NCBI GenBank assembly: GCA_964430785.1
Contig: CAYSFJ010000014.1
Location: 1 to 13,755, forward strand
Direction of reading: 5' to 3'
From: an uncultured Mycoplasma sp.
GTDB lineage: Bacteria; Bacillota_I; Bacilli_A; RF39; UBA660
Length of the DNA stretch: 13,755 bases
A program made the translations under genes and the position numbers. Positions within the stretch are counted from its first letter, which is position 1. The number at the start of each line of letters is the position of its first letter. The notes beneath the pieces are model-generated. The model did not search any database, was not told where the DNA came from, and saw only the letters and a list, made by a program, of their open reading frames with translations. Below are positions 1 through 13,755 of the stretch, one piece after another.

Positions 1-870
1 TGGGTAGGTTAATGCTCCATTTCCATTACTTGTATTTACTGTGAATTTATCACTTTCTTCAGGACAAGTTAGTATTGGTGCTTTATTTGTGTATAATCTT
101 CCATATGCTCCATAGTAATAGTAAGCTCCTGTTGATGTCCAAGCTGCTGTTTGTGTTGATGATGCACTTCTATCATTACAGAATATTTGGTCTTTTGACA
201 CTAAAGTATTATCTTTTAACGTCGTTCCTGCATACCAGTTTTCTAATGTAGTTTTTATTGCACTTGATGTACTATTGCCGTGTTGCTCTCCTATTGTATA
301 CATATATCCTACATATTCTGATTTATCATAACTACTATTAAATGTACTTGATCTTATTTGTGTTCCTTCACCAGCCATAACAATTGCTGTACTACTTGTT
401 GGTGCGGTTGTTCCCGAATATATCATTCTTATACTTCCATCACCATTTATTCTAATTATTCTCCAGTATATATCATTTCCACTACTATCTTTTCCAAATT
501 TTACCCAATTATTATCAACTGCACCCCTAAAATAATATGATGTTCCTAAATCATCTGTTGCTGCATACATACCTTCATTTGTTGTTGCAGTAGTACTAAA
601 ATCTGGTGTTCCTTTTGTCTCAATTAAAGTAGCCCCTCCATTATTATTTAATATTAATTCCCAACCATTTAAAGTATCATCAATATCATCTGAATCATCT
701 ATATTATTTTTATCAATTTCATATATATAATTTTTAACATCATTTTTTATCATTTTAAAATTAACTCTATTATTAATATATGTTGTCATAATAAGTATTA
801 AAAGCATACAAAATACTAGAAAAAAAGTATAAATTGTTGCTGTTGAAATAAAACCTTTTCTATTCACCAT
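1..870 (-). CDS. Pilin-like / minor pseudopilin-like protein, N-terminal 290 codons (3' end lies beyond the window start)
   Basis: I translated the minus strand by hand from the ATG at 870..868 down to base 1. It gives 290 sense codons with no stop (MVNRKGFISTATIYTFFLVFCMLLILIMTT...DIYWRIIRINGDGSIRMIYSG...ALTYP). The N-terminus is a short basic leader, then KGF, then a hydrophobic helix, which resembles a class III (prepilin) signal but has Thr instead of Glu at +5. The start overlaps the stop of the upstream pilin-like gene by 11 nt. It is absent from the ORF track, presumably because no stop codon lies inside the window. Confidence 0.6.
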   Translation of the reverse strand, partial: MVNRKGFISTATIYTFFLVFCMLLILIMTTYINNRVNFKMIKNDVKNYIYEIDKNNIDDSDDIDDTLNGWELILNNNGGATLIETKGTPDFSTTATTNEGMYAATDDLGTSYYFRGAVDNNWVKFGKDSSGNDIYWRIIRINGDGSIRMIYSGTTAPTSSTAIVMAGEGTQIRSSTFNSSYDKSEYVGYMYTIGEQHGNSTSSAIKTTLENWYAGTTLKDNTLVSKDQIFCNDRSASSTQTAAWTSTGAYYYYGAYGRLYTNKAPILTCPEESDKFTVNTSNGNGALTYP

Positions 871-1678
871 AATACACCCACGAAATATAATATGCATTTT
901 CACACCCCATACTATAACTTATTTCATCTTGATTATAATAAGCCTCAACTTTTTCTTTATTAGTTTCATAAAAAGTAAAATCTGTTCCATTAATTATTTT
1001 TTCATTTATGCAATTTTTATAACTTGTAGAACTATAACTTGAACCATCTTTTTTTTCATAAAATATACCAATCATTATACTATTCTTATTTGCATCTGTT
1101 CCATTTATTGTAAGCATATATTCTTTTAAATTAATACCTGAGTAGCTTTCCGTAAAACTTAGAAAATTTTCACATTTATTTTTAATTTGATTTTCTTCAA
1201 AATAGTCTTTACCCTTATTAATACACTTTTTTATATTAGGAAGATCTTCAGTTCTAAGATAAATTAATGTTTTAAAATTATATAATGAATACACATTATT
1301 AATATAAGTATTATCATCATATATTGATTTATAATCTACTGCAGCACAGTCCATATTACTTGAATCATTATCTATATATTTAGTACAAAATTTAGATTCA
1401 CTACTAAATAAATATACAAAATTATTTTCTAAACTATTTTTATTATTTGTCTTTTTATCATTTATAGCGGCATTAAATATAGTATCATCTACCGTATTTT
1501 TAACTGCATTTCTAATATATGCGGTTTTATAAATATAAGCTATATCATCATAATATAATCTTTGTTTTTCATCATTAATATTTTTACTAAAATTTGAATA
1601 TAAAAAAATAAGTGTCGTTGTTAAAACAACAGTAATTATAATAGTTTCTAAAAATACAAAACCTTTATTATTTATCAT
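860..1678 (-). CDS. Prepilin-type N-terminal cleavage/methylation domain protein (type IV pilin / Com pseudopilin-like)
   Basis: ORF 860..1705. The internal Met gives MINNKGF|VFLETIIITVVLTT, with the canonical G(-1) F(+1) E(+5) prepilin peptidase motif followed by a hydrophobic helix. The track start at 1705 is a TTG lying inside a promoter-like element, so I prefer the ATG at 1678. Neither start has a convincing Shine-Dalgarno, so the start is uncertain. Confidence 0.6.
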   Translation of the reverse strand: MINNKGFVFLETIIITVVLTTTLIFLYSNFSKNINDEKQRLYYDDIAYIYKTAYIRNAVKNTVDDTIFNAAINDKKTNNKNSLENNFVYLFSSESKFCTKYIDNDSSNMDCAAVDYKSIYDDNTYINNVYSLYNFKTLIYLRTEDLPNIKKCINKGKDYFEENQIKNKCENFLSFTESYSGINLKEYMLTINGTDANKNSIMIGIFYEKKDGSSYSSTSYKNCINEKIINGTDFTFYETNKEKVEAYYNQDEISYSMGCENAYYISWVYYGE

Positions 1679-1695
1679 ATCTATCACTACTATAA

Positions 1696-1724
1696 AGTTT
1701 AGCAAATAAATGGTTAAATGTCAA
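1696..1724 (-). promoter_or_regulatory. Candidate sigma-A type promoter for the pilin-like genes (TTGACA-17 nt-TAAACT)
   Basis: The minus strand reads TTGACA (1724..1719), a 17-nt spacer, then TAAACT (1701..1696), about 18 nt upstream of the ATG at 1678. AT-rich DNA produces such matches by chance. Confidence 0.3.
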
Positions 1725-1886
1725 TTTACACAATAATGTATATAATAAGATATGGATAATTTTATAAAAAAAATATTATTAATTTTTATTATTAGTTTAT
1801 TTATAATCATTATATTTTATGAATTATGTTTTATAGTAATATTTCCATTTAAATCAAATATATTTATATTAAAAATAACAATATTA

Positions 1887-2783
1887 CTACTCATTATCAC
1901 TATTAATACCATAATATTCTTTCGTTAATTTTTCTGCTTTTAAAAGATATAAAATATTATTATGAACTTTAATAGTATTTTTTTGAATATCATCATTTTT
2001 TTCAAGCCTTATTGGAATATTTAATAATATAAAAAGTAAATCTTTTTCATCATCAGTAAGTTCAAAAGACGATAAATATTGCTCTAAAAATGGTGAAAAG
2101 TCCATATTTAAATATTCATTATGAAATAAGGTTATAAAATCAAGAATTGGAGTATCTATTTTATAATTATCCCAACTTATTAGTGATGAAGAATTTTCAT
2201 TATATATAAAGTGTTCCATAGAAAGATTATTATGAACTATACTTACCCTAACCTTTTCATTATCTTTTACTTTTTCATACCAATTATCAAGCCTATCTTT
2301 ACAAAATTTTATAGCTCCATTAATTTTTGAATAATTACGACAAAATAAATATTTATCAGGACTTTGATATTCATAAGATAAATTTTTTAAAAAAATACCA
2401 TTATAATAAGCATCTAAATATTTTAAATTATTATCTATATTTTCATATATTTCTTTATAATCATCTAATTTTACTTTTTTAAAATATACAGTTTTATTAT
2501 GAAGACTTGCTAATACCATAGATAATTCTAAAAGTTTTTGTTCCTCAAATATATTATCTTCCTTTACAAATTCAAAAAGGTTTTCTTCTTCGCGAAAATT
2601 TTTTATTAATTTTGGAAAATTATTAAAACCTCTTTTATTTAAATAATTAAATAATGTATATAAATCTTTATTTTCTTTTTTTAAAACAAATTTTCCTACA
2701 GAGGAATCTAATATTATAGCATTACTTATTTTAGTAATTCGATATGGATTATATAGATTTTTAATATATTCTAAACTATTCAT
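1887..2783 (-). CDS. CotS/YsxE-family spore-coat kinase-like (aminoglycoside phosphotransferase fold) protein
   Basis: 298 aa. It has a kinase-like layout with a catalytic-loop region IVHNNLSMEHFIY and a downstream ISWDNYKIDTPILDF segment resembling the APH/CotS hxDxxxxN ... iDwd...p..Dl pattern. Its start overlaps the stop of the spoVID-like gene by 8 nt, mirroring the spoVID-ysxE gene pair of Bacillus subtilis. Confidence 0.5.
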   Translation of the reverse strand: MNSLEYIKNLYNPYRITKISNAIILDSSVGKFVLKKENKDLYTLFNYLNKRGFNNFPKLIKNFREEENLFEFVKEDNIFEEQKLLELSMVLASLHNKTVYFKKVKLDDYKEIYENIDNNLKYLDAYYNGIFLKNLSYEYQSPDKYLFCRNYSKINGAIKFCKDRLDNWYEKVKDNEKVRVSIVHNNLSMEHFIYNENSSSLISWDNYKIDTPILDFITLFHNEYLNMDFSPFLEQYLSSFELTDDEKDLLFILLNIPIRLEKNDDIQKNTIKVHNNILYLLKAEKLTKEYYGINSDNE

Positions 2784-3414
2784 TTACTATTGGAACAAGT
2801 AATTTATCATTAATATTTATATCAGATATTCCATTTATATTTAATAACTCTTCCCTAGTTATATTATATTTTTTACATATACAATCAATATCTTCAGTTT
2901 CTTTTACAATATGTATATGGTAAGAAATATAATCATTTTCAGCATTAATGCCAGTAACAGTGGTTATCATATTATCATTTAATTTATCATTAGATTTATT
3001 TATATCTTCATTATTTTCAATTAAATCTTTTCTTTCTTCGATTAAATCAATTGGTTCTGGAAGTCTTTCTGTTTTTTCAAAAGTTGGTGTTTCTTTTTTT
3101 TCTTTAGCCTTTACAATATAATCAATTTTAATTAATAAATCTTTATCATTTAAATCATATGTAAAATTATCTATAGAAAACTCTAATGTATCAATATCAA
3201 TATTACTTGCTATTTCTACGTTAAATGGTAATGTATAAGAAAAATCTTTTTTATTTAAACTAAGTTCATATTCTTTATATGTTCCTTTTATAATAAAATT
3301 TCCTAGAACTTCTTTATCATTTTTAGTAAATTCATGTTCTAAAGATATACTAGATATTTCACTTATAGGTGTATCAAATTTCACTACTTTCTCAAAAGGT
3401 ATAATTAAATTCAT
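2776..3414 (-). CDS. spoVID: SpoVID-like spore coat morphogenetic protein (N-terminal SpoVID/SPOCS-like region, acidic linker, C-terminal LysM)
   Basis: 212 aa. The N-terminus (FEKVVKFDTPISEISSISLEHEF...VLGNFIIKGTYKEYE...PFNVEI...IDNFTYDL) follows the pattern of the SpoVID N-terminal domain as I recall it. The C-terminus (YHIHIVKETEDIDCICKKYNITREELLNINGISDININDKLLVP) is a LysM-type motif. An AGGAG lies about 10 nt upstream of the ATG. Confidence 0.55.
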   Translation of the reverse strand: MNLIIPFEKVVKFDTPISEISSISLEHEFTKNDKEVLGNFIIKGTYKEYELSLNKKDFSYTLPFNVEIASNIDIDTLEFSIDNFTYDLNDKDLLIKIDYIVKAKEKKETPTFEKTERLPEPIDLIEERKDLIENNEDINKSNDKLNDNMITTVTGINAENDYISYHIHIVKETEDIDCICKKYNITREELLNINGISDININDKLLVPIVNE

Positions 3415-3463
3415 AAAAAATCATCTCCTATCAAAAGATATGAAGACGACTTTTATTTTATTA

Positions 3464-3907
3464 CTATTTATTTTTAGAATCAATTATTATAGTTATTGGA
3501 CCATCATTTTTTATATTTACTAGCATATCTGCTCCAAAAACGCCACCATAAGTTTTAACATAATCATTTAAACTTTTTAGCATTTTTTCATAAATTGGTT
3601 TTGCAATATCCCTTTTAGCGGCCTTAATATAACTTGGTCTATTTCCCTTTGAAGTATCCGCCATTAAAGTAAATTGACTAATTAAAAGTATTTCACCAGC
3701 ACTTTCTAAAATGCTTTTATTCATAATGCCATTTTCATCATCAAAAATACGTAAATTAACTATTTTTTTTACTAAATAAGAAATATCTTCATCAGTATCA
3801 TCTGGAGTAATACCTACTAAAATACATAATCCCTTCTCTATTTTATTAATAAGTTTACCAGATACACTTACACTAGAATTTTTACTTCTTTGAATAACTA
3901 CTTTCAT
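3464..3907 (-). CDS. dtd: D-aminoacyl-tRNA deacylase
   Basis: 147 aa. MKVVIQRSKNSSVSV...IVNLRIFDDENG...ISQFTLMADTSKGNRPSY...DGPITIIIDS matches Dtd along its full length. Its start overlaps the rel stop as ATGA. Confidence 0.9.
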   Translation of the reverse strand: MKVVIQRSKNSSVSVSGKLINKIEKGLCILVGITPDDTDEDISYLVKKIVNLRIFDDENGIMNKSILESAGEILLISQFTLMADTSKGNRPSYIKAAKRDIAKPIYEKMLKSLNDYVKTYGGVFGADMLVNIKNDGPITIIIDSKNK

Positions 3908-6006
3908 AATCTTTTAACATCCTTTACATACCTTAATTTACAAACATTTTTAATAACTAAATCAATATATGAATTATCTTCAACTTTAATTTTAACAAGA
4001 TAATTTATTTCATCTATTGTTTCAATAGAAATAATGTAAACTTTAGGTATAGATATTTTAGCAATAATATCAGATAATTTATTTTTATTACTACTTAAAG
4101 TTATTTTAATAGAGCATATATAATCATTATGAACAGTATCAATCCATGATGCAGATACAGTTTTATCATCGGAATTTATAATATTTTCACAATTTTTTTG
4201 ATGAACTGATATACCATCATTTTTAGTTATAATACCAATTATTTCATCGCCTTTAACTGGATTACAACATTTTGCTAAATGAGTAAGAATATTAACTTTA
4301 CCATCAATTAATATATCACTACCAGATTTTATATTAATGTTTTTCTTAGTAGCACTAGTTTCCTCTTTAGGAATTATAATATTAACTATATGAGTAACAG
4401 TATATTTATACGATCCTATGTTAAAATATAATTCATCTAAATCCTTAAGTTTTAATTCCTTTAAAATAAGTTTTAAATTATCTTGAGATGTAACCATACT
4501 TTGAGGTATTTTTCTTTTTCGAAGTTCCTTTTCTAAAATATTTTTTCCACGTTCAATATAATTTTGTTTATCTATTTTAGAAAAATATGCTTTAATTTTA
4601 TCCTTAGCTTGTGTGGTCTTAACAATATTTAACCATTCCTTTGAGGGCGTACTATTAGTATTAGTTAATATTTTACATATATCCCCATTATGAAGAGGTG
4701 TATTAATGGAAACCATTATATCATTTACAATAGCACCAGTCATTGTATCACCAACTTTTGAATGTACTCTATATGCAAAGTCAATTGGTGTTGCCTCTTC
4801 AGGTAACTCTATTACATCTCCTTTAGGAGTAAATACATACATTAAATTACCTAAAATATTGCTTCCAACAACTTCATTAAATACTTCATCAGTATCATTT
4901 TCACTATTTTCAATAATTGAACGATATATTTCAAGTTTTTGCTCCATATAAGTTTGAATCTTTTTTGCACCTTTTTCTTTATATGACCAATGTGATGCAA
5001 TACCTTTTTCGGCAATTTCATCCATCTCATATGTTCTAATTTGAATTTCATAAAATTTTCCACCAGGACCAAATACCGTTGTATGAAGACTTTGATACAT
5101 ATTTTCTTTTGGAACTGCAATATAATCTTTAAATCTTGATGGAATTGGTCTAAATTTTGAATGGATTAAACCAACTACTGCATAACAATCACTTTCTTTA
5201 TCAACAAAAATTCTTAAAGCTAATATATCATAAATATCATCCCATTTTTTTCCAGCACTTAATTTATTATAAATACTATATACACTTTTTACTCTACCCT
5301 TTATTTCAAATTTAATTTCATTTTCATTAAGTAACGTGCAAATACTTTCTTGCATTTCAACTAAATAGTTATTTAAACTATCCACTGTTATATTAAGCTT
5401 TTCTAAAATATCATTATATACATCTGGTTTTAAATAATATAAACACAAATTTTCAAGTTCACTTTTAATTGAATTAATACCAAGTCTATGAGCAATTGGA
5501 ACAAGAACTGATAATGTCTCATTTGCAACCTTCTTTTGTCTTTCACTACTTATAGCATTAAATGTACGCATGTTATGAAGTCTATCAGCTAGTTTAATAA
5601 ATAATACTCTTACATCTTCGCTTAAACCAACCATTACTTTACGTAGATATACTGCAGCGCTTTCTGAATCATCTACCATTTCAAGATTATTAATTTTTGA
5701 TAAAGAAAATATTATTTTATAAGTTTCTAAAGAAAAATTTTTTACAATTTCCTTTTCTTCAATTTCATTAAAATCAAGAACACTATGAAGTAATGCACAT
5801 ATAATTGTTTCCTTATCTACATTTAAATCTAATAATATATTAGCAACTTCAAGACAATGTGATAATTCAGTATCACCATTTTTTCTTTTTATTCCAGAAA
5901 GTTTTTCTTTTGCATACTCATATGCTATTTTTATATCTTTTATATCATCTGGATTTTTTATTTTATTTAATACATAGTTAAATGTCATCATTTTTTTCAC
6001 CTTCAA
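3904..6006 (-). CDS. relA: RelA/SpoT-family (p)ppGpp synthetase, long RSH with HD-like, synthetase, TGS and ACT-like regions
   Basis: 700 aa. Motifs seen: KLADRLHNMRT, RVKSVYSIYNKL, RFKDYIAVPKENMYQSLHTTV, IQIRTYEMDEIAEKGIASHWSYKE, and a TGS segment FTPKGDVIELPEEATPIDFAYRVHSKVG. The start could also be Met6 or Met7 (5991 or 5988). See the finding on the degenerate HD motif. Confidence 0.9.
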   Translation of the reverse strand: MKVKKMMTFNYVLNKIKNPDDIKDIKIAYEYAKEKLSGIKRKNGDTELSHCLEVANILLDLNVDKETIICALLHSVLDFNEIEEKEIVKNFSLETYKIIFSLSKINNLEMVDDSESAAVYLRKVMVGLSEDVRVLFIKLADRLHNMRTFNAISSERQKKVANETLSVLVPIAHRLGINSIKSELENLCLYYLKPDVYNDILEKLNITVDSLNNYLVEMQESICTLLNENEIKFEIKGRVKSVYSIYNKLSAGKKWDDIYDILALRIFVDKESDCYAVVGLIHSKFRPIPSRFKDYIAVPKENMYQSLHTTVFGPGGKFYEIQIRTYEMDEIAEKGIASHWSYKEKGAKKIQTYMEQKLEIYRSIIENSENDTDEVFNEVVGSNILGNLMYVFTPKGDVIELPEEATPIDFAYRVHSKVGDTMTGAIVNDIMVSINTPLHNGDICKILTNTNSTPSKEWLNIVKTTQAKDKIKAYFSKIDKQNYIERGKNILEKELRKRKIPQSMVTSQDNLKLILKELKLKDLDELYFNIGSYKYTVTHIVNIIIPKEETSATKKNINIKSGSDILIDGKVNILTHLAKCCNPVKGDEIIGIITKNDGISVHQKNCENIINSDDKTVSASWIDTVHNDYICSIKITLSSNKNKLSDIIAKISIPKVYIISIETIDEINYLVKIKVEDNSYIDLVIKNVCKLRYVKDVKRL

Positions 6007-6217
6007 AATCTGATTTAGAAAGATTTAATATGTCACTTACCATTTCATATAAAGTAAGATTTTTACAATTTGACCACTTATTTTCTTTTAAAAAATTCCA
6101 TAATTTAACCTCACTTACATTAATACCTAATTTTTTTAACTCACAAACTTTTGTATTAAACGCTGGGTATAGTCTATTAAATAATTCATTTAATGATTCA
6201 AATTTTATTTCTTCCAT
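5978..6217 (-). CDS. Small ComN-like (post-transcriptional regulator family) protein
   Basis: 79 aa. The segment LGINVSEVKLWNFLKENKWSNCKNLTLYEMVSDILNLS resembles the core of the ComN/YrzD family as I recall it. It is co-oriented with rel and overlaps it. An A/G-rich stretch (AAGGAAAG) lies upstream of the ATG. The family assignment is from memory only. Confidence 0.4.
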   Translation of the reverse strand: MEEIKFESLNELFNRLYPAFNTKVCELKKLGINVSEVKLWNFLKENKWSNCKNLTLYEMVSDILNLSKSDFEGEKNDDI

Positions 6218-6321
6218 ACTTCTTTTTCTTTCCTTACTTATTTTACTAAAAATTATCTAAAAAGTCTATAATTTTTAAATCTGTTAATTTAATAGGATAT
6301 ATAAAATTTTATCTATTTAAT

Positions 6322-6350
6322 TTGCCCTTTATATTCTAAAATGATATAAT
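6322..6350 (+). promoter_or_regulatory. Candidate promoter for rarA-gpsA (TTGCCC-17 nt-TATAAT)
   Basis: TTGCCC at 6322..6327, a 17-nt spacer, TATAAT at 6345..6350. The -10 sits only 14 nt from the ATG, so the predicted transcript start would clip the AGGA ribosome-binding site. An alternative TATAAT lies at 6267..6272. Confidence 0.25.
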
Positions 6351-6364
6351 AATTAGGATGTCTT

Positions 6365-7561
6365 ATGAAAATATTAGCAAATAGTATTAGACCTAAAACA
6401 CTTGATGATGTTCTTGGTCAGCAACATTTAATTGGAAAAGGTAAAGTACTTAGAAATTTAATAGAAAATAAAAAAATGTTCTCATTAATATTATATGGAA
6501 CACCTGGAATTGGCAAAACAACTCTTGCAAAAGTAATTGCAAATGAAATGAATATGCCATATGAATTTTTGAATGCCACTCAAAATAATAAAGATGATTT
6601 TTTAAGAGCAATAAATGATGCAAGACTTTCAGGAGAAAAAATACTTATTATAGATGAGATACATCGTATGAATAAAGATAAACAAGATATACTTCTTCCA
6701 TATCTTGAAAATGGAACAATTATTTTAATAGGTCTTACTACCTCAAATCCATTTATAAAAGTAAATCCTGCAATAAGAAGTAGATGTACAATTTTAGAAC
6801 TAACTCCTCTTTCTAAGGAAAATATAAAAAAGGGATTAGAAAATGCATTAAAATATCTTCCTGATATTGATATAACTAGTGATGCTCTTACATATATTGC
6901 GGGTGCAAGTGGTGGAGATGTTAGATGTGCTTATAATATACTTGAAATATCTTACTATGCTTTTAAAAAAGATATTACTGTAGATAAGATTAAGGAAATA
7001 ATACCAAAGGCAAATGTTTTTATTGATGAAACAGATGATGGACATTATGATGCTTTAAGTGGCTTACAAAAAAGTATACGAGGAAGTGATATTGATGCTT
7101 CCCTTCACTACCTTGCAAGGCTACTTTATGCTGGAGATTTAGATTCAATTGAACGTAGGCTTTCTGTTATTGCTTATGAAGATATTGGTCTTGCAAATCC
7201 TGGTATTGGGCCTAGACTAGATAGTGCAATAAATGCAGCAGAAAGAGTTGGTTTTCCTGAATGCAATATTATTTTGGGAGCCATTGTTACTGAAATGGCT
7301 CTGTCACCAAAAAGTAATAGTACTACAATTGCAATAGATAAAGCAATTAATGATTTAAATGAAAAAGGTGCCACTAAAATACCAGATAATATTAGAACAA
7401 ATTCTAGTACATATTTGTATCCACATAATTATAAAAATCATTATGTGAAACAAAATTATATGCCAAAAGAATATATTGGAAGTAAATATTACTTACCTCA
7501 AGATAATAATATAGAAAATGGACTTAATAAAGTTTATAAAGAAAGGACAGATAAAAAATGA
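6365..7561 (+). CDS. rarA: Replication-associated recombination protein A (AAA+ ATPase, MgsA/RarA)
   Basis: 398 aa. N-terminal RPKTLDDVLGQQHLIG, Walker A GTPGIGKTTLA, Walker B ILIIDEIHR, and C-terminal HYDALSGLQKSIRGSD...ALHYLARLL...GD...IERRL...AYEDIGLANP typical of RarA. Confidence 0.9.
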   Translation: MKILANSIRPKTLDDVLGQQHLIGKGKVLRNLIENKKMFSLILYGTPGIGKTTLAKVIANEMNMPYEFLNATQNNKDDFLRAINDARLSGEKILIIDEIHRMNKDKQDILLPYLENGTIILIGLTTSNPFIKVNPAIRSRCTILELTPLSKENIKKGLENALKYLPDIDITSDALTYIAGASGGDVRCAYNILEISYYAFKKDITVDKIKEIIPKANVFIDETDDGHYDALSGLQKSIRGSDIDASLHYLARLLYAGDLDSIERRLSVIAYEDIGLANPGIGPRLDSAINAAERVGFPECNIILGAIVTEMALSPKSNSTTIAIDKAINDLNEKGATKIPDNIRTNSSTYLYPHNYKNHYVKQNYMPKEYIGSKYYLPQDNNIENGLNKVYKERTDKK

Positions 7562-8535
7562 AAATAGCAATGCTTGGAACAGGTGTTTATGGGCTTGCAA
7601 TAGCAAGTAAACTCGCTGAAAATGGAAATCAAGTTATAATGTGGACAGAAAATAAAGATAAAGAAAATGAATATCAAACAACACATAATTTAAAAAGTAT
7701 AAATGAAAGTTATAATCTTTCTGATAATATTGAAGTTACCTCAAATGTGCAAGATGCAATGAATGGTGCAAAAATAGTATTTTTTACTTGTGCATCAAAA
7801 TATACAAATGAAATTGCAAGTATGATTCTTCCCTACTTTGAAAAAAATATGATCATATGTATTGCAAGTAAAGGTATTGAAGAAAAAACTTGTCATTTAC
7901 TTTCTAATGTAATTAAATTTATTTTAAATGCAAAAAATATAACAGTTATATCAGGGCCAACTTTTGCAGTTGATATGCTTGCTGGAGAACCAGTTGCATT
8001 AGCAATCGCAGGAACTAATAGAAAAAGTCAAAATATAGTAGTTAAAGCTTTATCTTGTGATACAGTCAAACTTAGAATTTCAAAAGATATAATTGGAGTC
8101 CAAATATGTGGTGCTGTTAAAAATGTAATTGCTATTGCCTCAGGTATATTGGGAGGTTTAGGGTATTCAGAAAGTACAAGAGCATTTTTAATAAATGAAT
8201 CACTTCATGATATCAAAGATTTAATTTCTTTTTTAGGAGGTAAACCAAAAACTATACTTTCTTTTGCTGGAGTTGGAGATTTATTAATGACATGTATGAG
8301 TACAAAAAGTCGTAACTATTCATTTGGATATGTTATAGGTTCAACTAAAGATAAAAATAAAATTGATAAATTTTTAAAAGAACACACCGTTGAGGGATAT
8401 AATACTTTGAAAACTGTTATGCTCCTTTTAAAAAAGAAAAATATAAATATCGAACTTATATCACTTATCAATGATATAGTTGATTATAAAGAAAGTCCAG
8501 AAAAATTAAGTGAATTTCTTATAAACAAAAAATAA
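7558..8535 (+). CDS. gpsA: NAD(P)H-dependent glycerol-3-phosphate dehydrogenase
   Basis: 325 aa. N-terminal Rossmann motif MKIAMLGTGVYGLA, plus GPTFAVDMLAGEPVALAIAG and CGAVKNVIAIASGILGGLGY typical of GpsA. Its start overlaps the rarA stop (ATGA). Confidence 0.9.
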   Translation: MKIAMLGTGVYGLAIASKLAENGNQVIMWTENKDKENEYQTTHNLKSINESYNLSDNIEVTSNVQDAMNGAKIVFFTCASKYTNEIASMILPYFEKNMIICIASKGIEEKTCHLLSNVIKFILNAKNITVISGPTFAVDMLAGEPVALAIAGTNRKSQNIVVKALSCDTVKLRISKDIIGVQICGAVKNVIAIASGILGGLGYSESTRAFLINESLHDIKDLISFLGGKPKTILSFAGVGDLLMTCMSTKSRNYSFGYVIGSTKDKNKIDKFLKEHTVEGYNTLKTVMLLLKKKNINIELISLINDIVDYKESPEKLSEFLINKK

Positions 8536-8541
8536 AACTAG
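8525..8541. repeat. Left copy of the 17-nt direct repeat ACAAAAAATAAAACTAG (covers the last gpsA codons and the left arm of the terminator)
   Basis: Exact 17/17 match to 9084..9100, checked base by base. The sequence is low complexity (A-rich), so chance or convergent terminator sequence cannot be excluded. Confidence 0.5.
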
Positions 8542-8557
8542 CCTATCTAGTTTTTTT
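8534..8557. terminator. Bidirectional Rho-independent terminator between convergent gpsA and the toxN-like gene
   Basis: AAAACTAG (8534..8541), loop CCTAT, CTAGTTTT (8547..8554), then a T-run to 8557. The A-run on the left makes it usable from the minus strand too. Confidence 0.65.
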
Positions 8558-8642
8558 ATTATATTCTTTGCACTTTTTTCTAATAGTTTAAAATCACAAC
8601 ATCTACTTGCAATATGTGAATTTAAAGTTTTATTAATAAATT

Positions 8643-9050
8643 TTAAATATAGTTTTTTGATTTATTATAAAGAATATCACTGTTACGGTTAAGCCAATAA
8701 ATTTGTTCTTTTAATAACTTCACATATTTTTCTTTACTTTTTATAAAACAATCTTTATCTAAATTTAATTTAATAATATTTTTATTTGTTACAGGTATCA
8801 TACTATTAAAATTTACAGCTCCTAAATCACCATTTGAAATTTTCAAAAAGTCTAATGTTGTTCTCATAGTTTTATGTTTCGCTTTAGGACTTGATAATGG
8901 AACAAAATATTTACAATTGTTTATTTCAAATAAAACGCCTACAAAAGGTCGCAACTCTTTCTTATCATAGTTATAAGGAACTTTCAGGTCAAACTTACGT
9001 AAGTAATTACAATAATCTGAGTCAATTTTAACTAATACTAATTTCTTCAT
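8643..9050 (-). CDS. ToxN/AbiQ-family endoribonuclease (type III toxin-antitoxin toxin / abortive-infection protein), short form
   Basis: 135 aa. It aligns by eye with ToxN/AbiQ: YCNYLRKFDLKVP (compare YIEYLKEFDDKVP), PFVGVLFEINNCKYFVPLSSPKAKH (compare AFIGIVLEIQGHKYLAPLTSPKKWH), LGAVNFNSMIPV (compare LGLINLKFMIPI) and YVKLLKEQIYWLNRNSDIL. A strong ribosome-binding site GAGGTGG lies 5 nt upstream of the ATG. It is roughly 35 aa shorter than the ~170-aa ToxN/AbiQ proteins as I recall them. Confidence 0.75.
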   Translation of the reverse strand: MKKLVLVKIDSDYCNYLRKFDLKVPYNYDKKELRPFVGVLFEINNCKYFVPLSSPKAKHKTMRTTLDFLKISNGDLGAVNFNSMIPVTNKNIIKLNLDKDCFIKSKEKYVKLLKEQIYWLNRNSDILYNKSKNYI

Positions 9051-9083
9051 TTAAACCACCTCAAAAACCATTATACAATAATT

Positions 9084-9100
9084 ACAAAAAATAAAACTAG
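9084..9100. repeat. Right copy of the 17-nt direct repeat ACAAAAAATAAAACTAG
   Basis: Exact match to 8525..8541. It forms the left arm and A-tract of the terminator hairpin at 9094..9117. Confidence 0.5.
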
Positions 9101-9124
9101 AGTAAGCTCTCTAGTTTCTTTTTT
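9086..9124. terminator. Strong bidirectional terminator hairpin immediately upstream of the toxN-like gene
   Basis: AAACTAGAG (9094..9102), loop TAAGCT, CTCTAGTTT (9109..9117). It is followed by CTTTTTT on the plus strand and by TTTTATTTTTT on the minus strand. On the minus strand it lies between the upstream hairpin region and the toxN ribosome-binding site, the position the terminator occupies in type III TA loci. Confidence 0.6.
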
Positions 9125-9136
9125 AAGTTCCTCTTA

Positions 9137-9160
9137 TAGTGGGAATCACTAGTTTTTTTT
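9137..9160. terminator. Second hairpin plus T8 tract (terminator-like on the plus strand; hairpin preceded by A8 on the minus strand)
   Basis: TAGTG (9137..9141), loop GGAAT, CACTA (9147..9151), then G and T8 (9153..9160). The stem is only 5 bp. Confidence 0.35.
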
Positions 9161-9221
9161 AATAACCATCTACATAGCACTCTATGTAAACAGTTAAATG
9201 CATAAATTAATATGCGTAATT

Positions 9222-9230
9222 AATATACCA
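9222..9230 (-). promoter_or_regulatory. Candidate extended -10 promoter (TGgTATATT) upstream of the hairpin region
   Basis: The minus strand reads TG (9230..9229), g, TATATT (9227..9222). It overlaps a 13-nt-period direct repeat TATTAATT(n)YGCA x2 (about 9225..9200). No good -35 element is present. Confidence 0.3.
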
Positions 9231-9259
9231 CAAAATTATTAAAATTTACATATTTTTTA

Positions 9260-11125
9260 TTAATTTTTATATTCATTTTTAATTTTATTATAAACCTTCT
9301 CTTCATCTAAATTATTTAATTTTATAAGTTCCTCTCTTGAAGCTGTAAACATAAACTTATTTGGGATATTATAAATATAAAAATCATTCTTGCTGTTTAT
9401 TTTACTAGCAAAGGAAAGTATTACACTATCTAAACTACACCCTTCCATACTTTCTTCATAAATAAATACTTTTTTATAATATTGGAGTATTTTAGTAAGC
9501 ATTTTTTCATCAATTGGTTTTAAAAATCTAGCATTAATAATTGTAAGATTTATATTATCTTTAGATAACCATTCACAAATAGTTTTTGTTTTGCCTACAA
9601 AATCACCATAAGTAATAATTACGCCATCTTCTCCAGATGCAAGTACACTCCAAGAACCTAAAATAATATTTTCTTTCTTTTGAAAATCATATTTTAAATT
9701 TATTTTGGGATATCTTATAGCAAAAGGTTTATTACATTTTAATGCAAGTTCTAATAGATTATCAGCTTCTTTAGGACTCGATGGCATAGAAATAGCCATA
9801 TTAGGAATAGGAAGTAGCATTGGCACGTCAAATAATCCTTGATGCGTTTCTCCATCAGATGATACAAATCCCGCTCTATCAATACATAAAATAACATGTT
9901 CATTCATTCTAGCAATATCATGAACTATTTCATCATAACCACGCTGAAGAAAACTTGAATATATAAAACATATTGGTTTTTTACCATTTTCCGCAAGGGA
10001 AGAAGCTAGAACTAAAGCGTGCTCTTCGTTAATGCCAACATCGATAAATTGATTAGGTAATTTTTCTTTAATAATGCTAAGCTTACAACCTTTCTCCATC
10101 GCAGGCGTAATAACAATTATATCTTTATCTTTTTTAGCATAATTTAAAACATAAGAACTCATTATTTCACTATATGATGGTAAATTTGATATTTCTTTAG
10201 GTTTACCATCGCTTATATTAAAAGGGCCAACTCCATGAAAAGATCCATTTTCATCATTTTCAGCAGGTTCATAGCCAAATCCTTTTTTAGTTATTACATG
10301 AAGTAAAACAGGTTTATTAATATTTTTAACCATTTGTAAATACTTAATCATTTCATTAAAGTCTTCACCATCTATCGGGCCAAAATATTCAAGACCTAAA
10401 GATGTAAATAAACTTCCCTTTTTTACATATAACATTTTAAAGTTATCTTTAATACTATTTAAGGCATTAGCACACACTTTACCAAACTTTGTTTTATTTA
10501 AAAAACTTTTAGTGTTTTTTTTAACTTTATTATACTTTTTACCCGCTCTTACGGAATCTAAAAAATTATGAACAGCACCAACATTTTTAGAAATGCTCAT
10601 TTCATTATCATTTAAAATAATAATTAGTCTTGTATTTAAACTTCCTATGTGATTAAGTGCCTCAAAGGAAAGACCATTAGAAATAGAACCATCTCCGATA
10701 ACACATACAACATTATAATTTTTCTTATCTAAATCTCTTGCTAAAGCAAAACCAAGACCTGCAGATAAAGATGTTGAACTATGTCCTGCTTCATAAACAT
10801 CATATTTACTTTCACTTTTCTTTTGAAAACCATCTAGCCCATTATACTTTCTTAAATTTTTGAAATCTTTTGCTCTACCAGTTAATATTTTATATGGATA
10901 AGTTTGATGCCCAACATCAAAAATTATTTTATCTTTATTTACATCAAATACTTTAAGAATTGCAATTGTTAAATCTGTTATACCCAAATTTGAGGATAAA
11001 TGTCCTCCTGTATTAGAAACATTTTGTAAAATAAATTCTCTAATATCCGCACCTAAAACAGCAAGTTCATCATTATTTAATTTCTTTAAAAAATCAGGAT
11101 TTTTTATATTTTCAATCTTATCCAT
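9260..11125 (-). CDS. dxs: 1-deoxy-D-xylulose-5-phosphate synthase
   Basis: 621 aa. N-terminal GGHLSSNLGITDLTIAL..FDVGHQTYPYKILTGR, TPP-binding IGDGSISNGLSFEALN, and central and C-terminal transketolase-like regions (FIDVGINEEHAL, DGETHQG). Full-length Dxs architecture. Confidence 0.92.
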   Translation of the reverse strand: MDKIENIKNPDFLKKLNNDELAVLGADIREFILQNVSNTGGHLSSNLGITDLTIAILKVFDVNKDKIIFDVGHQTYPYKILTGRAKDFKNLRKYNGLDGFQKKSESKYDVYEAGHSSTSLSAGLGFALARDLDKKNYNVVCVIGDGSISNGLSFEALNHIGSLNTRLIIILNDNEMSISKNVGAVHNFLDSVRAGKKYNKVKKNTKSFLNKTKFGKVCANALNSIKDNFKMLYVKKGSLFTSLGLEYFGPIDGEDFNEMIKYLQMVKNINKPVLLHVITKKGFGYEPAENDENGSFHGVGPFNISDGKPKEISNLPSYSEIMSSYVLNYAKKDKDIIVITPAMEKGCKLSIIKEKLPNQFIDVGINEEHALVLASSLAENGKKPICFIYSSFLQRGYDEIVHDIARMNEHVILCIDRAGFVSSDGETHQGLFDVPMLLPIPNMAISMPSSPKEADNLLELALKCNKPFAIRYPKINLKYDFQKKENIILGSWSVLASGEDGVIITYGDFVGKTKTICEWLSKDNINLTIINARFLKPIDEKMLTKILQYYKKVFIYEESMEGCSLDSVILSFASKINSKNDFYIYNIPNKFMFTASREELIKLNNLDEEKVYNKIKNEYKN

Positions 11126-11786
11126 TGATAATATCCTTTATTACATAATCAGTTAAATATATTCCCGCAATTGAGGTAGTACAAACATATGATGAAACAA
11201 TCTTACTTTTAATTGGTTTTTCTTTAGAACATATTACATTAACATTATCAGTAAAATTACATTTTTTAATTAAATAATGATTTAGTTTTTTACCAAGTGG
11301 ATCAGATAAACTTTCTTTTAAGGTACTTTTACATACTAATTCAGGGCAAACCCTATTGCCAATTCCTAAAGAAACAATTATTTTCTTATTATATTTTTTT
11401 GCATTTAATATAAGATTTGCCTTAGCAGGAACACTATCACAAGCATCAATTATATAATCATATGAAGAAAAATCGAATTCAGATTTAAAATCTAAAAAAG
11501 TATCTAAAACATTAATATTTACATTTTTATTAATACTTTTGGCTCTTATAACGGCTTCATCAATTTTCTTTTTGCCTATTGAATCAATTGTTGCATATAA
11601 CTGTCTATTTAAATTACTTTCTTCATAAGTATCAAAATCAATTACAGTAATATTTTCTACTCCACATCTAATTAGAGTTTCAAAGCAAAAAGATCCTACT
11701 CCACCAATCCCCACTAAAAGGATATGAGTATTTTTAATCTTTTCTAAATTACTTTCTCCAAACAAATTTATTAATCTTTCTTTCAT
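11118..11786 (-). CDS. tcdA: ThiF/MoeB-family E1-like enzyme, most like tRNA threonylcarbamoyladenosine dehydratase (TcdA/YrvM)
   Basis: 222 aa. LFGESNLEKIKNTHILLVGIGGVGSFCFETLIRCGVENITVIDFDTYEESNLNRQ is the TcdA-type Rossmann/ATP motif. The protein is small and lacks ThiF/MoeB C-terminal extras. It overlaps the dxs start by 8 nt. AGGAG lies 7 nt upstream of the ATG. Confidence 0.7.
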   Translation of the reverse strand: MKERLINLFGESNLEKIKNTHILLVGIGGVGSFCFETLIRCGVENITVIDFDTYEESNLNRQLYATIDSIGKKKIDEAVIRAKSINKNVNINVLDTFLDFKSEFDFSSYDYIIDACDSVPAKANLILNAKKYNKKIIVSLGIGNRVCPELVCKSTLKESLSDPLGKKLNHYLIKKCNFTDNVNVICSKEKPIKSKIVSSYVCTTSIAGIYLTDYVIKDIING

Positions 11787-11789
11787 ACA

Positions 11790-11981
11790 TACTCCTATTA
11801 AAAAACCCAGTAAGATTAGTCTATGCTAGATAAAATCCCGCGCTCTCCGCAGGTGGGCATCACATAAGTTATTTTAGGATTCTTATGTACTTAATGAATA
11901 AGCATTCTACACCATAACCTAATTAGATTCCCTTATTTCTATCTTTAGTCGGTTTTATACGCTATAAACTATCAACTAGGT
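11790..11981 (-). promoter_or_regulatory. Candidate structured 5' leader (unclassified cis-regulatory RNA) of tcdA-dxs
   Basis: On the minus strand an 8-bp helix pairs 11981..11974 (ACCTAGTT) with 11924..11917 (AATTAGGT, one G-U pair). A 7-bp hairpin spans 11888..11862. A GC-rich 6-bp hairpin CCTGCG-GAGAG-CGCGGG at 11853..11837 is followed by ATTTTAT. This is the only GC-rich patch in about 340 nt of AT-rich spacer. Confidence 0.35.
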
Positions 11982-11987
11982 ATCTTT

Positions 11988-11996
11988 ATTATAGCA
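11988..11996 (-). promoter_or_regulatory. Candidate extended -10 promoter (TGcTATAAT) for the tcdA-dxs leader
   Basis: Exact TGnTATAAT on the minus strand. The predicted start near 11981 coincides with the 5' strand of the outer helix of the leader. Confidence 0.35.
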
Positions 11997-12078
11997 AACT
12001 ATTTATCTAAAATAAATATAATAAAATTAAGTTTACATTATATTTTATAATTTTAGCATATATTCCACTAAAATTATA

Positions 12079-12107
12079 TTAATATTTTACAGTAAAATAA
12101 GTGTCAA
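12079..12107 (-). promoter_or_regulatory. Alternative upstream promoter (TTGACA-17 nt-TATTAA)
   Basis: On the minus strand: TTGACA at 12107..12102, a 17-nt spacer, TATTAA at 12084..12079. It lies just downstream of the stop of the 12127..12762 gene. Confidence 0.3.
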
Positions 12108-12126
12108 ATAAAAAAGCGTAAGCATC

Positions 12127-12762
12127 TTAATATCTTACTCCTCCCCATTCAACAGCAACAAAACCTATTCTTTCAAATGTAGGAAGTTCTTGCTCTTTAA
12201 TTTTAACTTTTTTATTTACTTTTTTTACATGCATAGTTACTCTTAATAAACTATCAGGTACAGGCTCTATAATTAATTTATTATATTTTTCTATACTTTC
12301 AGTTAATTCAAAATATACTAAACTTTTTCCATTATTTTCAAGTATTGGAAGCCAGTACATTATAAATTCATTTTTTTCTCTATCATTTAAACCAATTAGA
12401 GAAAGTTTTTCCTCAAGAAAAGAAATAGCATCAACTTTTTCTACATAAAAGCCTTCGTCAAAAGATGATTTAACATTATTTTTCTCTTCCCAATATAATG
12501 CATAATAATATTTTCCGTTTTCATCATATAAATTACCAAGTGTATCTGCATTTACACTCCATCCATTATTATATTTAGGATATGTTGTTGCAAGATATTC
12601 TGGATGCTCAAACTTAACAGTTATATTTTCATTTTTAATTGGATATAAATATAAAACTGGTTTAGCTTTCATTGGAACCAATGAGGAAAATATAATACAT
12701 AATATAAAGAATAAAATAAGTGCTAAAATAATTTTACCTATCATATAAATAATTTTTTTCAC
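12127..12762 (-). CDS. Membrane-anchored protein of unknown function, paralogue B (PVLYLYP...VEWGG domain)
   Basis: ORF 12127..12780. I prefer the GTG at 12762 (VKKIIYMIGKIILALILFFILCIIF, read as MKK plus a hydrophobic anchor), which has GGGGA 5 nt upstream and lies 1 nt after the stop of the preceding gene. About 175 C-terminal residues are identical to 13005..13667 apart from I/T and K/E near the repeat boundary and R/T at the penultimate residue (VRY vs VTY). I do not recall a named family. Confidence 0.65.
   Translation of the reverse strand: MKKIIYMIGKIILALILFFILCIIFSSLVPMKAKPVLYLYPIKNENITVKFEHPEYLATTYPKYNNGWSVNADTLGNLYDENGKYYYALYWEEKNNVKSSFDEGFYVEKVDAISFLEEKLSLIGLNDREKNEFIMYWLPILENNGKSLVYFELTESIEKYNKLIIEPVPDSLLRVTMHVKKVNKKVKIKEQELPTFERIGFVAVEWGGVRY
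12137..12663. repeat. 527-bp direct repeat, copy 1 (2 mismatches to copy 2)
   Basis: Base-by-base comparison with 13015..13541 at a constant offset of 878 nt. The only differences I found are at 12636 (t vs c) and 12638 (a vs g). Confidence 0.9.
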
Positions 12763-12763
12763 T

Positions 12764-13003
12764 TTAATCCCCACATTCACACTTTATTGTATCTGTACTT
12801 TCTTTCATTTCATCATCATAATAATGACATGTTTGCATGCCACCACTACACTCAGTACAATTTACTGAACTTTGGCAATATAATCTACCACCACTGTCAT
12901 GATGAAAAAATATAATAAAAATTATATAAGCAAAAGTAATAACATTTAAAATAGCCAAAATTACAAACGAAACTTTCCAATAATTTTTCCTTTCTTTTTT
13001 CAT
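12764..13003 (-). CDS. Small single-pass membrane protein with a Cys-rich extracytoplasmic tail
   Basis: I prefer the ATG at 13003 (MKKERKNYWK, then TM VSFVILAILNVITFAYIIFIIFF, then the tail with C-x5-C-x2-C-x6-C-x15-C-x-C). This start lies 1 nt after the stop of the upstream gene. The track start at 13039 would overlap that gene by 35 nt. Confidence 0.5.
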   Translation of the reverse strand: MKKERKNYWKVSFVILAILNVITFAYIIFIIFFHHDSGGRLYCQSSVNCTECSGGMQTCHYYDDEMKESTDTIKCECGD

Positions 13004-13004
13004 T

Positions 13005-13667
13005 TTAGTAAGTAACTCCTCCCCATTCAACAGCAACAAAACCTATTCTTTCAAATGTAGGAAGTTCTTGCTCTTTAATTTTAACTTTTTTATTTACTTT
13101 TTTTACATGCATAGTTACTCTTAATAAACTATCAGGTACAGGCTCTATAATTAATTTATTATATTTTTCTATACTTTCAGTTAATTCAAAATATACTAAA
13201 CTTTTTCCATTATTTTCAAGTATTGGAAGCCAGTACATTATAAATTCATTTTTTTCTCTATCATTTAAACCAATTAGAGAAAGTTTTTCCTCAAGAAAAG
13301 AAATAGCATCAACTTTTTCTACATAAAAGCCTTCGTCAAAAGATGATTTAACATTATTTTTCTCTTCCCAATATAATGCATAATAATATTTTCCGTTTTC
13401 ATCATATAAATTACCAAGTGTATCTGCATTTACACTCCATCCATTATTATATTTAGGATATGTTGTTGCAAGATATTCTGGATGCTCAAACTTAACAGTT
13501 ATATTTTCATTTTCAGTTGGATATAAATATAAAACTGGTTTTCTGATTACACTTGTTAAAGAAGGATACAAAAAATAAATAAATAGTATTTGTAATATTA
13601 ATATCAAAAGCAAAGTTATAGTTAAACTTTTATAATTATTTTCTTCATTTGAATTATTTTTATTCAT
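13005..13667 (-). CDS. Membrane-anchored protein of unknown function, paralogue A (PVLYLYP...VEWGG domain)
   Basis: ORF 13005..13691. I prefer the ATG at 13667 (MNKNNSNEENNYKSLTITLLLILILQILFIYF), which has GGAG 5 nt upstream and lies 1 nt after an upstream in-frame stop. The C-terminal domain is encoded by the 527-bp repeat. Confidence 0.65.
   Translation of the reverse strand: MNKNNSNEENNYKSLTITLLLILILQILFIYFLYPSLTSVIRKPVLYLYPTENENITVKFEHPEYLATTYPKYNNGWSVNADTLGNLYDENGKYYYALYWEEKNNVKSSFDEGFYVEKVDAISFLEEKLSLIGLNDREKNEFIMYWLPILENNGKSLVYFELTESIEKYNKLIIEPVPDSLLRVTMHVKKVNKKVKIKEQELPTFERIGFVAVEWGGVTY
13015..13541. repeat. 527-bp direct repeat, copy 2
   Basis: See copy 1. Identity stops abruptly at both ends: the last three codons differ (VRY vs VTY) and the N-terminal anchors are unrelated. 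Confidence 0.9.
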
Positions 13668-13668
13668 G

Positions 13669-13755
13669 TTATCTCCAACAAGATGAAACATTACAGTTTG
13701 ATGAATAAGGCATTGGGTTAGGCATTTCCATCTTAACTATCATAGGTATTTTAAA
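13669..13755 (-). CDS. 3' end of a further upstream ORF (C-terminus ...PMPYSSNCNVSSCWR), gene start outside the window
   Basis: The minus-strand frame is open from the window edge to the TAA at 13671..13669 (28 codons). The stop is followed by 1 nt and then the ATG of paralogue A, the same junction geometry as the other two junctions in this operon. Too short to be certain it is coding. Confidence 0.3.
   Translation of the reverse strand, partial: FKIPMIVKMEMPNPMPYSSNCNVSSCWR

Follow-up and report, generated by a model that had tools for sequence, protein, structure and literature searches.

A probable decaying ToxIN locus with a single remaining ToxI unit and a frameshifted toxN in an uncultured gut Mycoplasma sp.

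The stretch of DNA analysed here, hereafter the window (13,755 nt; contig CAYSFJ010000014.1, positions 1 to 13,755, of assembly GCA_964430785.1, from an uncultured Mycoplasma sp.), carries on its minus strand an open reading frame (ORF) related to ToxN, the toxin of type III toxin-antitoxin (TA) systems, and directly upstream of it a 209-nt spacer (9051..9259). A preliminary description of this DNA had taken the ORF for an intact toxN and the spacer for a possible antitoxin RNA of highly degenerate or novel format. By comparison with homologous loci from other genomes, we find that the reading frame of toxN is broken and that the spacer holds one unit of an otherwise canonical ToxI array. The spacer is thus very probably the antitoxin half of a decaying ToxIN (ToxN_Bt/AbiQ-like) type III locus.

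Elements of the spacer

The gene order in the window is thiF-dxs-spacer-toxN, convergent with gpsA-mgsA. The spacer is bordered upstream by the dxs stop codon at 9260 and ends at the ATG of the ToxN-like ORF at 9050, both on the minus strand, as are all features described below unless stated otherwise; gpsA lies on the opposite side of toxN from the spacer and ends at 8535. At the upstream end of the spacer, a toxI promoter can be read directly (9222..9250), made up of a weak -35 element (TGTAAA, 9250..9245), a 17-nt gap and an extended -10 element (TGgTATATT, 9230..9222). A simple consensus scan did not list this promoter because only 3 of 6 bases of its -35 element match; at the corresponding position homologous loci carry TTGACA/TAGACA-17-(TG)nTATATT. 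The promoter is followed by a leader (9164..9215) that forms two hairpins in the minimum free energy fold, the first with a GCATA/TATGC stem (9215..9200) and the second with a TACATAG/CTATGTA core (9188..9171) that extends to 15 bp over 9195..9164; folding of the spacer gave z = -5.7. The second leader hairpin is preserved in an intact sister locus, L001, through an A-to-G change that produces a G-U pair, and other loci carry a hairpin of different sequence (GCTAC/GTAGC, GCAAC/GTTGC or GCC/GGC) directly 5' of their first A-run.

Downstream of the leader, an A8 run that can be read directly (9160..9153) opens the single remaining ToxI unit (9125..9160), a 36-nt segment of the form A8-CTAGTG-ATTCC-CACTA-TAAG-AGGAA-CTT that was identified with the covariance model R1 described below. 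Inside this unit, the 5-bp stem TAGTG/CACTA (P1, 9151..9137, with two G-C pairs) closes a loop in which TTCC is able to pair with the downstream GGAA as the second helix (P2) of a pseudoknot. On the minus strand, the P1 hairpin is followed by GAGGAACTT and then, 3' of the unit, by an A6 run (9124..9119). The latter lies within AAAAAAGAA (9124..9116), the start of a partial fourth unit that is fused to an intrinsic terminator (9085..9124 in all). A terminator scan, which found two terminator-like sites where 0.1 were expected, placed the stem-loop at 9118..9093, with a 10-bp stem followed by a T-run, and called it on both strands; its sequence, AAAAAAGAAACTAGAGAGCnnACTCTAGTTTTAT, is conserved in the closer homologous loci compared. 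Since the terminator occupies the P1 position of the partial fourth unit, its hairpin appears periodic with the unit before it. Finally, a TATAAT box (9075..9070) and a ribosome-binding site (RBS; GAGGTGG, 9062..9056) can be read directly between the terminator and the toxN start (9056..9075). As regards the positions of the hairpins, A-tracts and terminator, direct reading and folding agree with the preliminary description.

That description had also reported that this region holds no perfect tandem repeat and no canonical array, and both statements are borne out: Tandem Repeats Finder (TRF) found no tandem repeat in 9051..9259, and R1 matched a single unit. The quasi-periodicity of about 37 nt that it proposed is weak. 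Self-match at offsets 36-40 is 0.35-0.36, barely above that at other offsets and without a clear peak, and the sole periodic element is a 13/15-nt direct repeat (AAAAAAAACTAGTGA / AAAAGAAACTAGAGA) with 38-nt spacing, as good a repeat being obtained by chance in 23 of 1000 Markov-1 random sequences (2.3%). Judged from the window alone, the periodicity is statistically marginal, and the hairpin at 9188..9171, which had been counted as one of three periodic hairpins, is the leader hairpin, which intact loci also have ahead of their array. A search with ToxI-type models of Rfam, which had been proposed as a check, returned nothing relevant at E <= 10 in 8400..9400 and no ToxI-type match at gathering score across the whole window. 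ToxI sequences are family-specific, so that the lack of an Rfam match is no argument against ToxI function.

The ToxI array in related genomes

Homologous loci were surveyed with one genome per species, which gave 80 further loci in gut metagenome-assembled genomes labelled Bacilli, Tenericutes, Erysipelotrichaceae and Clostridia. According to TRF, an array of 33-36-nt repeats (about 2.5-3.4 copies, mostly 3.2-3.3) lies directly upstream of toxN in 76 of these 80 loci; it called none in L017 and L041, where contigs end, and none in L060. Counted with a regular expression, full units number exactly three in 66 of 81 loci, and most departures from this count are contig-end or pattern artefacts; all 78 loci with an intact toxN hold about three units. 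The order of elements in an intact locus is promoter, structured leader, three full 34-36-nt units that each open with an A5-7G tract, a partial fourth unit fused to the terminator, a TATAAT box, the RBS and toxN.

The array lies at about 2260-2440 in each of L003-L082, and its copy number is constant at three full units plus the partial fourth across the clade, within which ToxN identity falls to about 58% and the unit sequences have co-varied. Two loci have peculiarities of their own: three units in L082 (2140..2400) carry an insertion of about 25 nt, giving a 59-nt period, and are flanked by normal 34-nt units, and in L052 (71..140) two extra matches to the ToxI unit lie about 2.2 kb upstream of the main array, possibly as a second or partial array at the edge of the locus. 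Between the ToxI terminator and the RBS of toxN, at 12-40 nt from the start codon, lies a -10-like TATAAT box that 63 of 80 loci have in perfect form; it occurs in 51 of 68 distinct segments as against 8.3 expected from shuffles (maximum 18). Often a TTGnnn element resembling a -35 box lies 17 nt upstream of it, and we suggest that toxN in the gut clade has a promoter of its own and is not expressed by terminator read-through alone.

About 80 homologous loci supplied the 128 distinct units from which model R1 was built; none came from the window lineage. Genuine units score about 30-52 bits, and usually three are found per locus (76 loci). In the window there is one match (9158..9125), with 43.4 bits and E 2e-6, and the next best reaches 14 bits. 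A covariation analysis of the regions upstream of homologous toxN genes had been proposed beforehand and, when it was run on these 128 units, both P1 and P2 pairs were found to covary. In P1, pair 12-24 is GC in 100 units and AU in 25, and pair 14-22 is UG in 64, UA in 44 and CG in 20. In P2, which joins the loop to the tail, pair 18-33 is T-A in 115 units and C-G in seven of the eight units with C18, and the pair A21-T30 is present in 58; these P2 counts come from a GG-anchored parse, the MAFFT alignment being one that misaligns the 3' third of the units. The ToxI unit of this clade is accordingly predicted to be an H-type pseudoknot, in which the loop pairs with the 3' GGAA segment. With its loop ATTCCC and tail AGGAAC, the unit in the window falls into a class of 22 units, one of the commonest, and keeps all the covarying pairs. 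The earlier proposal of a degenerate or novel antitoxin RNA was therefore correct in so far as the region is related to an antitoxin, as the 43-bit unit indicates, but the unit itself is of canonical form, with both predicted pseudoknot helices intact.

The sister locus L001 has the same synteny as the window and an intact 169-aa ToxN, and its spacer contains a canonical array of 3.3 copies of 34-35 nt, in the order leader, AAAAAAGCTAGTGATTCCCACTATAAGAGGAACTT, AAAAAAGAAGCGATTCCGGCTTAAACAGGAACTT twice and AAAAAAGAA with the terminator. The spacer of the window can be aligned with it from end to end, with single-base differences and one clean gap of 68 nt, which corresponds to two units. Unit 1 and the partial unit with the terminator are retained in the window, and units 2 and 3 are absent, as expected if they were lost by deletion between repeated ...GGAACTTAAAAAAGAA junctions. 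The remaining unit is identical to unit 1 of L001, L003 and L010 except at the A-run/G7 position, where the conserved G after the A-run has been lost (AAAAAAG -> AAAAAAAA), its one deviation.

The toxN reading frame

The ORF at 8643..9050 encodes a 135-aa product that matches the Pfam family PF13958 (ToxN_toxin) with E 1e-37, over profile positions 3-128 of 159 only, and the PADLOC model for AbiQ with E 4e-30, coverage by Pfam and PADLOC ending at position 127-128 of about 160. From these matches and from comparison with homologues, we assign it to a toxN pseudogene (8543..9050) whose ancestral frame would run to the TAG at 8545..8543 and encode 169 aa; it can no longer be regarded as the intact toxN that it had been taken for. 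The 1283 database homologues of the 135-aa ORF are typically 166-172 aa long, and ToxN has 161-175 aa in 78 of 79 loci. The closest homologue, P0001 (95% identical, 169 aa), continues at its C terminus with '...SKKLYLKFINKTLNSHIASRCCDFKLLEKKCKEYNKKTR', and this sequence is present in the window but divided between the two other reading frames.

Alignment of the DNA accounts for this division. Over the 515 nt of toxN, the window has two uncompensated 1-nt deletions relative to the intact L001 and L002, both of which shorten an A7 run to A6: frameshift 1 lies at 8653..8658 and truncates the protein after residue 133, and frameshift 2 lies at 8574..8579. When one A is added at each of the two sites, a 169-aa protein collinear with P0001 is obtained. 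In the flanking thiF, dxs, gpsA and mgsA genes (about 4.7 kb), only compensated alignment gaps and no net frameshift were found relative to the P0001 loci. The window lineage also carries the substitutions A50V in YFAPLSSPK, N83S in NFNNM and E106K, at residues that are invariant or nearly so among 78 homologues and at which L001 retains the consensus. Five or more independent assemblies (L086-L090), made from different samples with two pipelines, have exactly the same 135-aa product and 209-nt upstream spacer. Frameshift 1 is common to all of L086-L090, whereas frameshift 2 is polymorphic: L087 and L090 match the window at the second A-run, and in L086, L088 and L089 the alignment offset indicates an extra base there, with gpsA one base further along.

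The likely consequence for the protein can be read from an AlphaFold model of P0001 (pLDDT 80, pTM 0.78), which has a TM-score of 0.72-0.75 to ToxN_Bt (4ATO), ToxN_Ec (7D8O), AbiQ (4GLK) and ToxN_Pa (2XD0); a sequence search of solved structures with P0001 returned PDB 4ATO with E 8.5e-24. In this model, a stop after residue 133 would cut the helix 124-139 and delete the helices 145-150 and 154-167. The helices lost are the most confidently modelled part of the protein and bear the conserved motif RCC.F.LLE.KC..YN, and Lys148 of ToxN_Bt, which contacts ToxI (PMC5086642), lies in the region lost here.

Broken toxN genes are not confined to the window lineage. In L060, a two-unit array, the only other contracted array among the loci examined, stands beside a toxN that is frameshifted near codon 35 (2501..3000 in that locus). 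In L083-L085 (the P0055/P0056 lineage), toxN is broken at the same A-run as in the window (SKK to SKN...) and has an internal deletion and a GTG start, and a 3.3-copy array is retained. Other lineages thus have independent toxN pseudogenes, with the A7 run at codons 132-134 as an apparent hotspot of repeated inactivation.

Interpretation and comparison with known systems

The frameshifts in toxN shift the biological reading of the locus from an unusual TA system to a decaying one. Of the features by which type III toxIN families are recognised (Blower et al. 2012; PMC3401426), the locus has a toxin gene of the ToxN/AbiQ endoribonuclease family, a palindromic terminator between antitoxin and toxin, and a unit that is homologous to the ToxI of its family and able to form an H-type pseudoknot through the predicted helices P1 and P2. 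A full-length intact toxin ORF is missing, and in place of a tandem array of at least two short repeats upstream of the terminator there are 1.3 copies. By analogy with characterised ToxIN systems, ToxN would cleave the precursor RNA in its A-tracts, and each unit freed in this way would fold as an H-type pseudoknot and bind ToxN to give an inactive cyclic complex. In the window lineage, a 68-nt deletion between GGAACTTAAAAAAGAA junctions took units 2 and 3 and left unit 1, the partial unit and the terminator, and the surviving unit has also lost the conserved G after its A-run by mutation. Inactivation of the toxin would have come about through the 1-nt loss in the A7 run, which ends the protein at 135 aa, short of its C-terminal helices; the loss in the second A-run and the substitutions at invariant residues are consistent with relaxed selection.

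In known systems, antiQ requires at least 1.8 of its 2.8 repeats and ToxI_Pa requires 2.5 of its 5.5 (PMC5086642), and an array of 1.3 units would therefore be hard to tolerate beside a live toxin. From the state of both components we infer a loss of function, and the locus has most likely ceased to work as a TA or abortive-infection system. Transcription of dxs/toxI is probably still stopped by the surviving terminator.

Several observations weigh against this view of the locus as a decaying ToxIN system. The surviving unit is, as far as can be predicted, structurally intact, scores like genuine units and has A-runs on both sides, and the promoter, RBS and terminator are preserved, as are the first 133 codons with the active-site motif PLSSPK, so that there may be residual function. 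ToxN of the window deviates from invariant residues at five positions, a high count but one within the range of intact homologues (maximum 8). The link between contraction of the array and death of the toxin is not strict, as L083-L085 show; their state suggests that loss of the toxin can precede loss of the array. Lastly, toxN is 97.9% identical to L001 over its span as compared with 88-93% for the flanking housekeeping genes, and such a likeness is unexpected for a gene that has long been dead. It suggests either a very recent inactivation or a recent exchange of the cassette, and the identity of the toxN cassette hints at recent horizontal exchange or a sweep between related strains.

A locus in decay has to be set against one that is still at work. 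A functional minimal type III system, in which the single unit with its A8 and A6 cleavage sites would neutralise ToxN, either as an active product of 135 aa or at full length through slippage on the A-runs, seems to us unlikely. The 43-bit unit has kept its P1 and P2 pairing, the promoter, terminator, TATAAT box, RBS and catalytic-motif region are conserved, and the recurrence of the A-run frameshift in P0055/P0056 (L083-L085), together with the polymorphism of the second A-run, resembles the behaviour of phase-variable tracts. However, restoration of the frame in the window needs two separate +1 corrections, the 36 lost residues include the best-conserved and most confidently modelled helices, and the invariant A50 and N83 are mutated. 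Moreover, about three units are present in all 78 intact homologues, the characterised relatives require at least 1.8-2.5 repeats (PMC5086642), and the internal deletion and GTG start of toxN in L083 point to decay and not to switching. An orphan ToxI RNA may have a residual or secondary role; it is quite unlikely, in our judgement, that the unit has been kept as a decoy or 'anti-addiction' RNA against the ToxN of an incoming mobile element or phage, or that the A-run frameshifts are a reversible toxin switch with array length co-adjusting.

Readings without a ToxIN history fare worse. The preliminary description had allowed for stacked bidirectional terminators inherited from gpsA, with the toxin left lacking a cognate RNA, and a set of stacked bidirectional intrinsic terminators between convergent or neighbouring genes, without any antitoxin meaning, would fit the calling of 9118..9093 as a terminator on both strands, the T8 that follows the 9137..9151 hairpin on the plus strand, and the fact that dxs has no terminator of its own ahead of the region. 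Such an origin is nevertheless highly improbable: the 9151..9137 hairpin lies within the 36-nt, 43-bit match to a ToxI unit, which is nearly identical to unit 1 in many genomes, and with 5 bp and two G-C pairs it would make a weak terminator, and gpsA is located beyond toxN and has its own terminator at 8534..8557. A new or highly degenerate antitoxin format, with dissimilar hairpins about 37 nt apart as its units, could account for hairpin centres some 36-38 nt apart and for the CTAG-type core common to the stems of the unit and the terminator, but it has next to nothing left to explain once a 68-nt deletion from a canonical array accounts for the whole layout, the 9188..9171 hairpin is recognised as a leader element that is also found upstream of the array in intact loci, and the periodicity of the window is seen to be statistically marginal; we consider it the least probable of all. 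An artefact of assembly or sequencing, in the form of collapsed tandem repeats and miscalled homopolymers, is brought to mind by the identity of units 2 and 3 in L001, by the break of the Logan contig L002 within the array and by the fact that every small indel falls in a homopolymer. Against it, five or more independent assemblies, derived from different samples and two pipelines, agree in the single-unit spacer and frameshift 1, a collapse of units 2 and 3, which are identical, would have spared one copy of unit 2, of which the window holds no sequence, and the whole array, at about 114 nt, is shorter than the k = 141 that the contig names indicate (k141_...). Sequencing error as the source of the A-run indels was likewise rejected, given that the independent assemblies agree and that there is no net homopolymer frameshift in about 4.7 kb of neighbouring genes, and an artefact is very unlikely to explain the locus.

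Further features were noted in the window. The terminator hairpin of gpsA (AAAACTAG-CCTAT-CTAGTTTT with a T-run; 8534..8557, plus strand) can be read directly and overlaps the ancestral toxN stop. The convergent gpsA/toxN terminator region (8523..8566) and that of the toxI terminator (9087..9130; AAACTAGAG-AGCTTA-CTCTAGTTT) are direct repeats of 70% similarity that bracket toxN. We considered this pair as the mark of a cassette insertion by duplication and rejected the idea, the regions downstream of toxN in other loci being unrelated; because those regions are not conserved, the likeness of the two terminators is probably local or due to chance, as a coincidence between A/T-rich terminators. 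Upstream of thiF lies a 6S (SsrS) RNA gene (11800..11985, minus strand; Rfam RF00013, 53.9 bits, above the gathering score). Two tandem paralogous ORFs of 217 and 228 aa (12127..12780 and 13005..13691, both on the minus strand) have a near-identical C-terminal protein sequence, with a 300-nt stretch that is 98% identical between 12123..12422 and 13001..13300; the pair goes back to a recent tandem duplication, and the protein is small and membrane-anchored.

In summary, the main value of our analysis is a corrected annotation, by which the locus becomes a ToxIN pseudo-locus and represents neither an intact toxin nor a new antitoxin format. It offers a natural snapshot of the decay of a type III TA system, in which the toxin has suffered homopolymer frameshifts and the array of the RNA antitoxin has collapsed by recombination. 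Every contracted array that we saw stands beside a broken toxN, which fits selection for an array of about three units for as long as the toxin is alive. From the comparisons there also emerges a large, uncharacterised ToxIN clade of gut bacteria, with a fixed 3.3-copy array and an apparent separate promoter for toxN.

Among known systems, the paradigm order of promoter, tandem repeats, terminator and toxN is that of ToxIN_Pa from Pectobacterium atrosepticum (pECA1039; PDB 2XD0/2XDD), in which ToxN cuts ToxI into pseudoknot units and is inhibited by them within a cyclic complex (PMC3401426, PMC5086642). ToxIN_Pa has 5.5 repeats of 36 nt and a single promoter, and its terminator sets the toxI:toxN ratio (PMC3401426), whereas loci of the gut clade have a fixed copy number of about 3.3 and what looks like a second promoter. 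The toxin of AbiQ/antiQ from Lactococcus lactis (PDB 4GLK) falls into the same family in Pfam and PADLOC and adopts the same fold (TM-score 0.72), and antiQ has 2.8 repeats of 35 nt. AbiQ/antiQ differs in protein sequence (about 39% identity on plasmid copies) and is a plasmid-borne, proven abortive-infection system, whereas the locus in the window is decayed and lies on the chromosome of an uncultured gut bacterium with the label Bacilli/'Tenericutes'.

Among solved structures, that of ToxIN_Bt from Bacillus thuringiensis (pAW63-type; PDB 4ATO; TM-score 0.72) gives the best match in sequence. Its ToxI has 2.9 repeats of 34 nt, and ToxI is an H-type pseudoknot (PMC5086642); this fits the B. 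thuringiensis locus L091, where we found 3.1 copies of a 34-nt repeat (AAAAAATTGGTGTAGCCTTACCGTAGTAGGCAC). As in the gut clade, an A-run in L091 is followed by ..GGTG (AAAAAATTGGTG...), the loop is complementary to a downstream segment, and the terminator and toxN come next. ToxIN_Bt differs from the clade in its protein (about 36% identity) and in its unit outside the A-run/GGTG part; L091 has no TATAAT box between terminator and RBS and is not matched by R1 at E <= 0.5, and by comparison with ToxIN_Bt the window has only 1.3 units and a broken toxN. Closest of all is the uncharacterised ToxIN clade of gut Bacilli and Clostridia (L001, L003-L082), to which the window locus belongs by descent: the ToxN fragment has 95% identity with P0001, and the locus shares with the clade a near-identical unit 1, the terminator, the TATAAT box and the RBS, whereas units 2 and 3 and the toxN reading frame have been lost in the window lineage.

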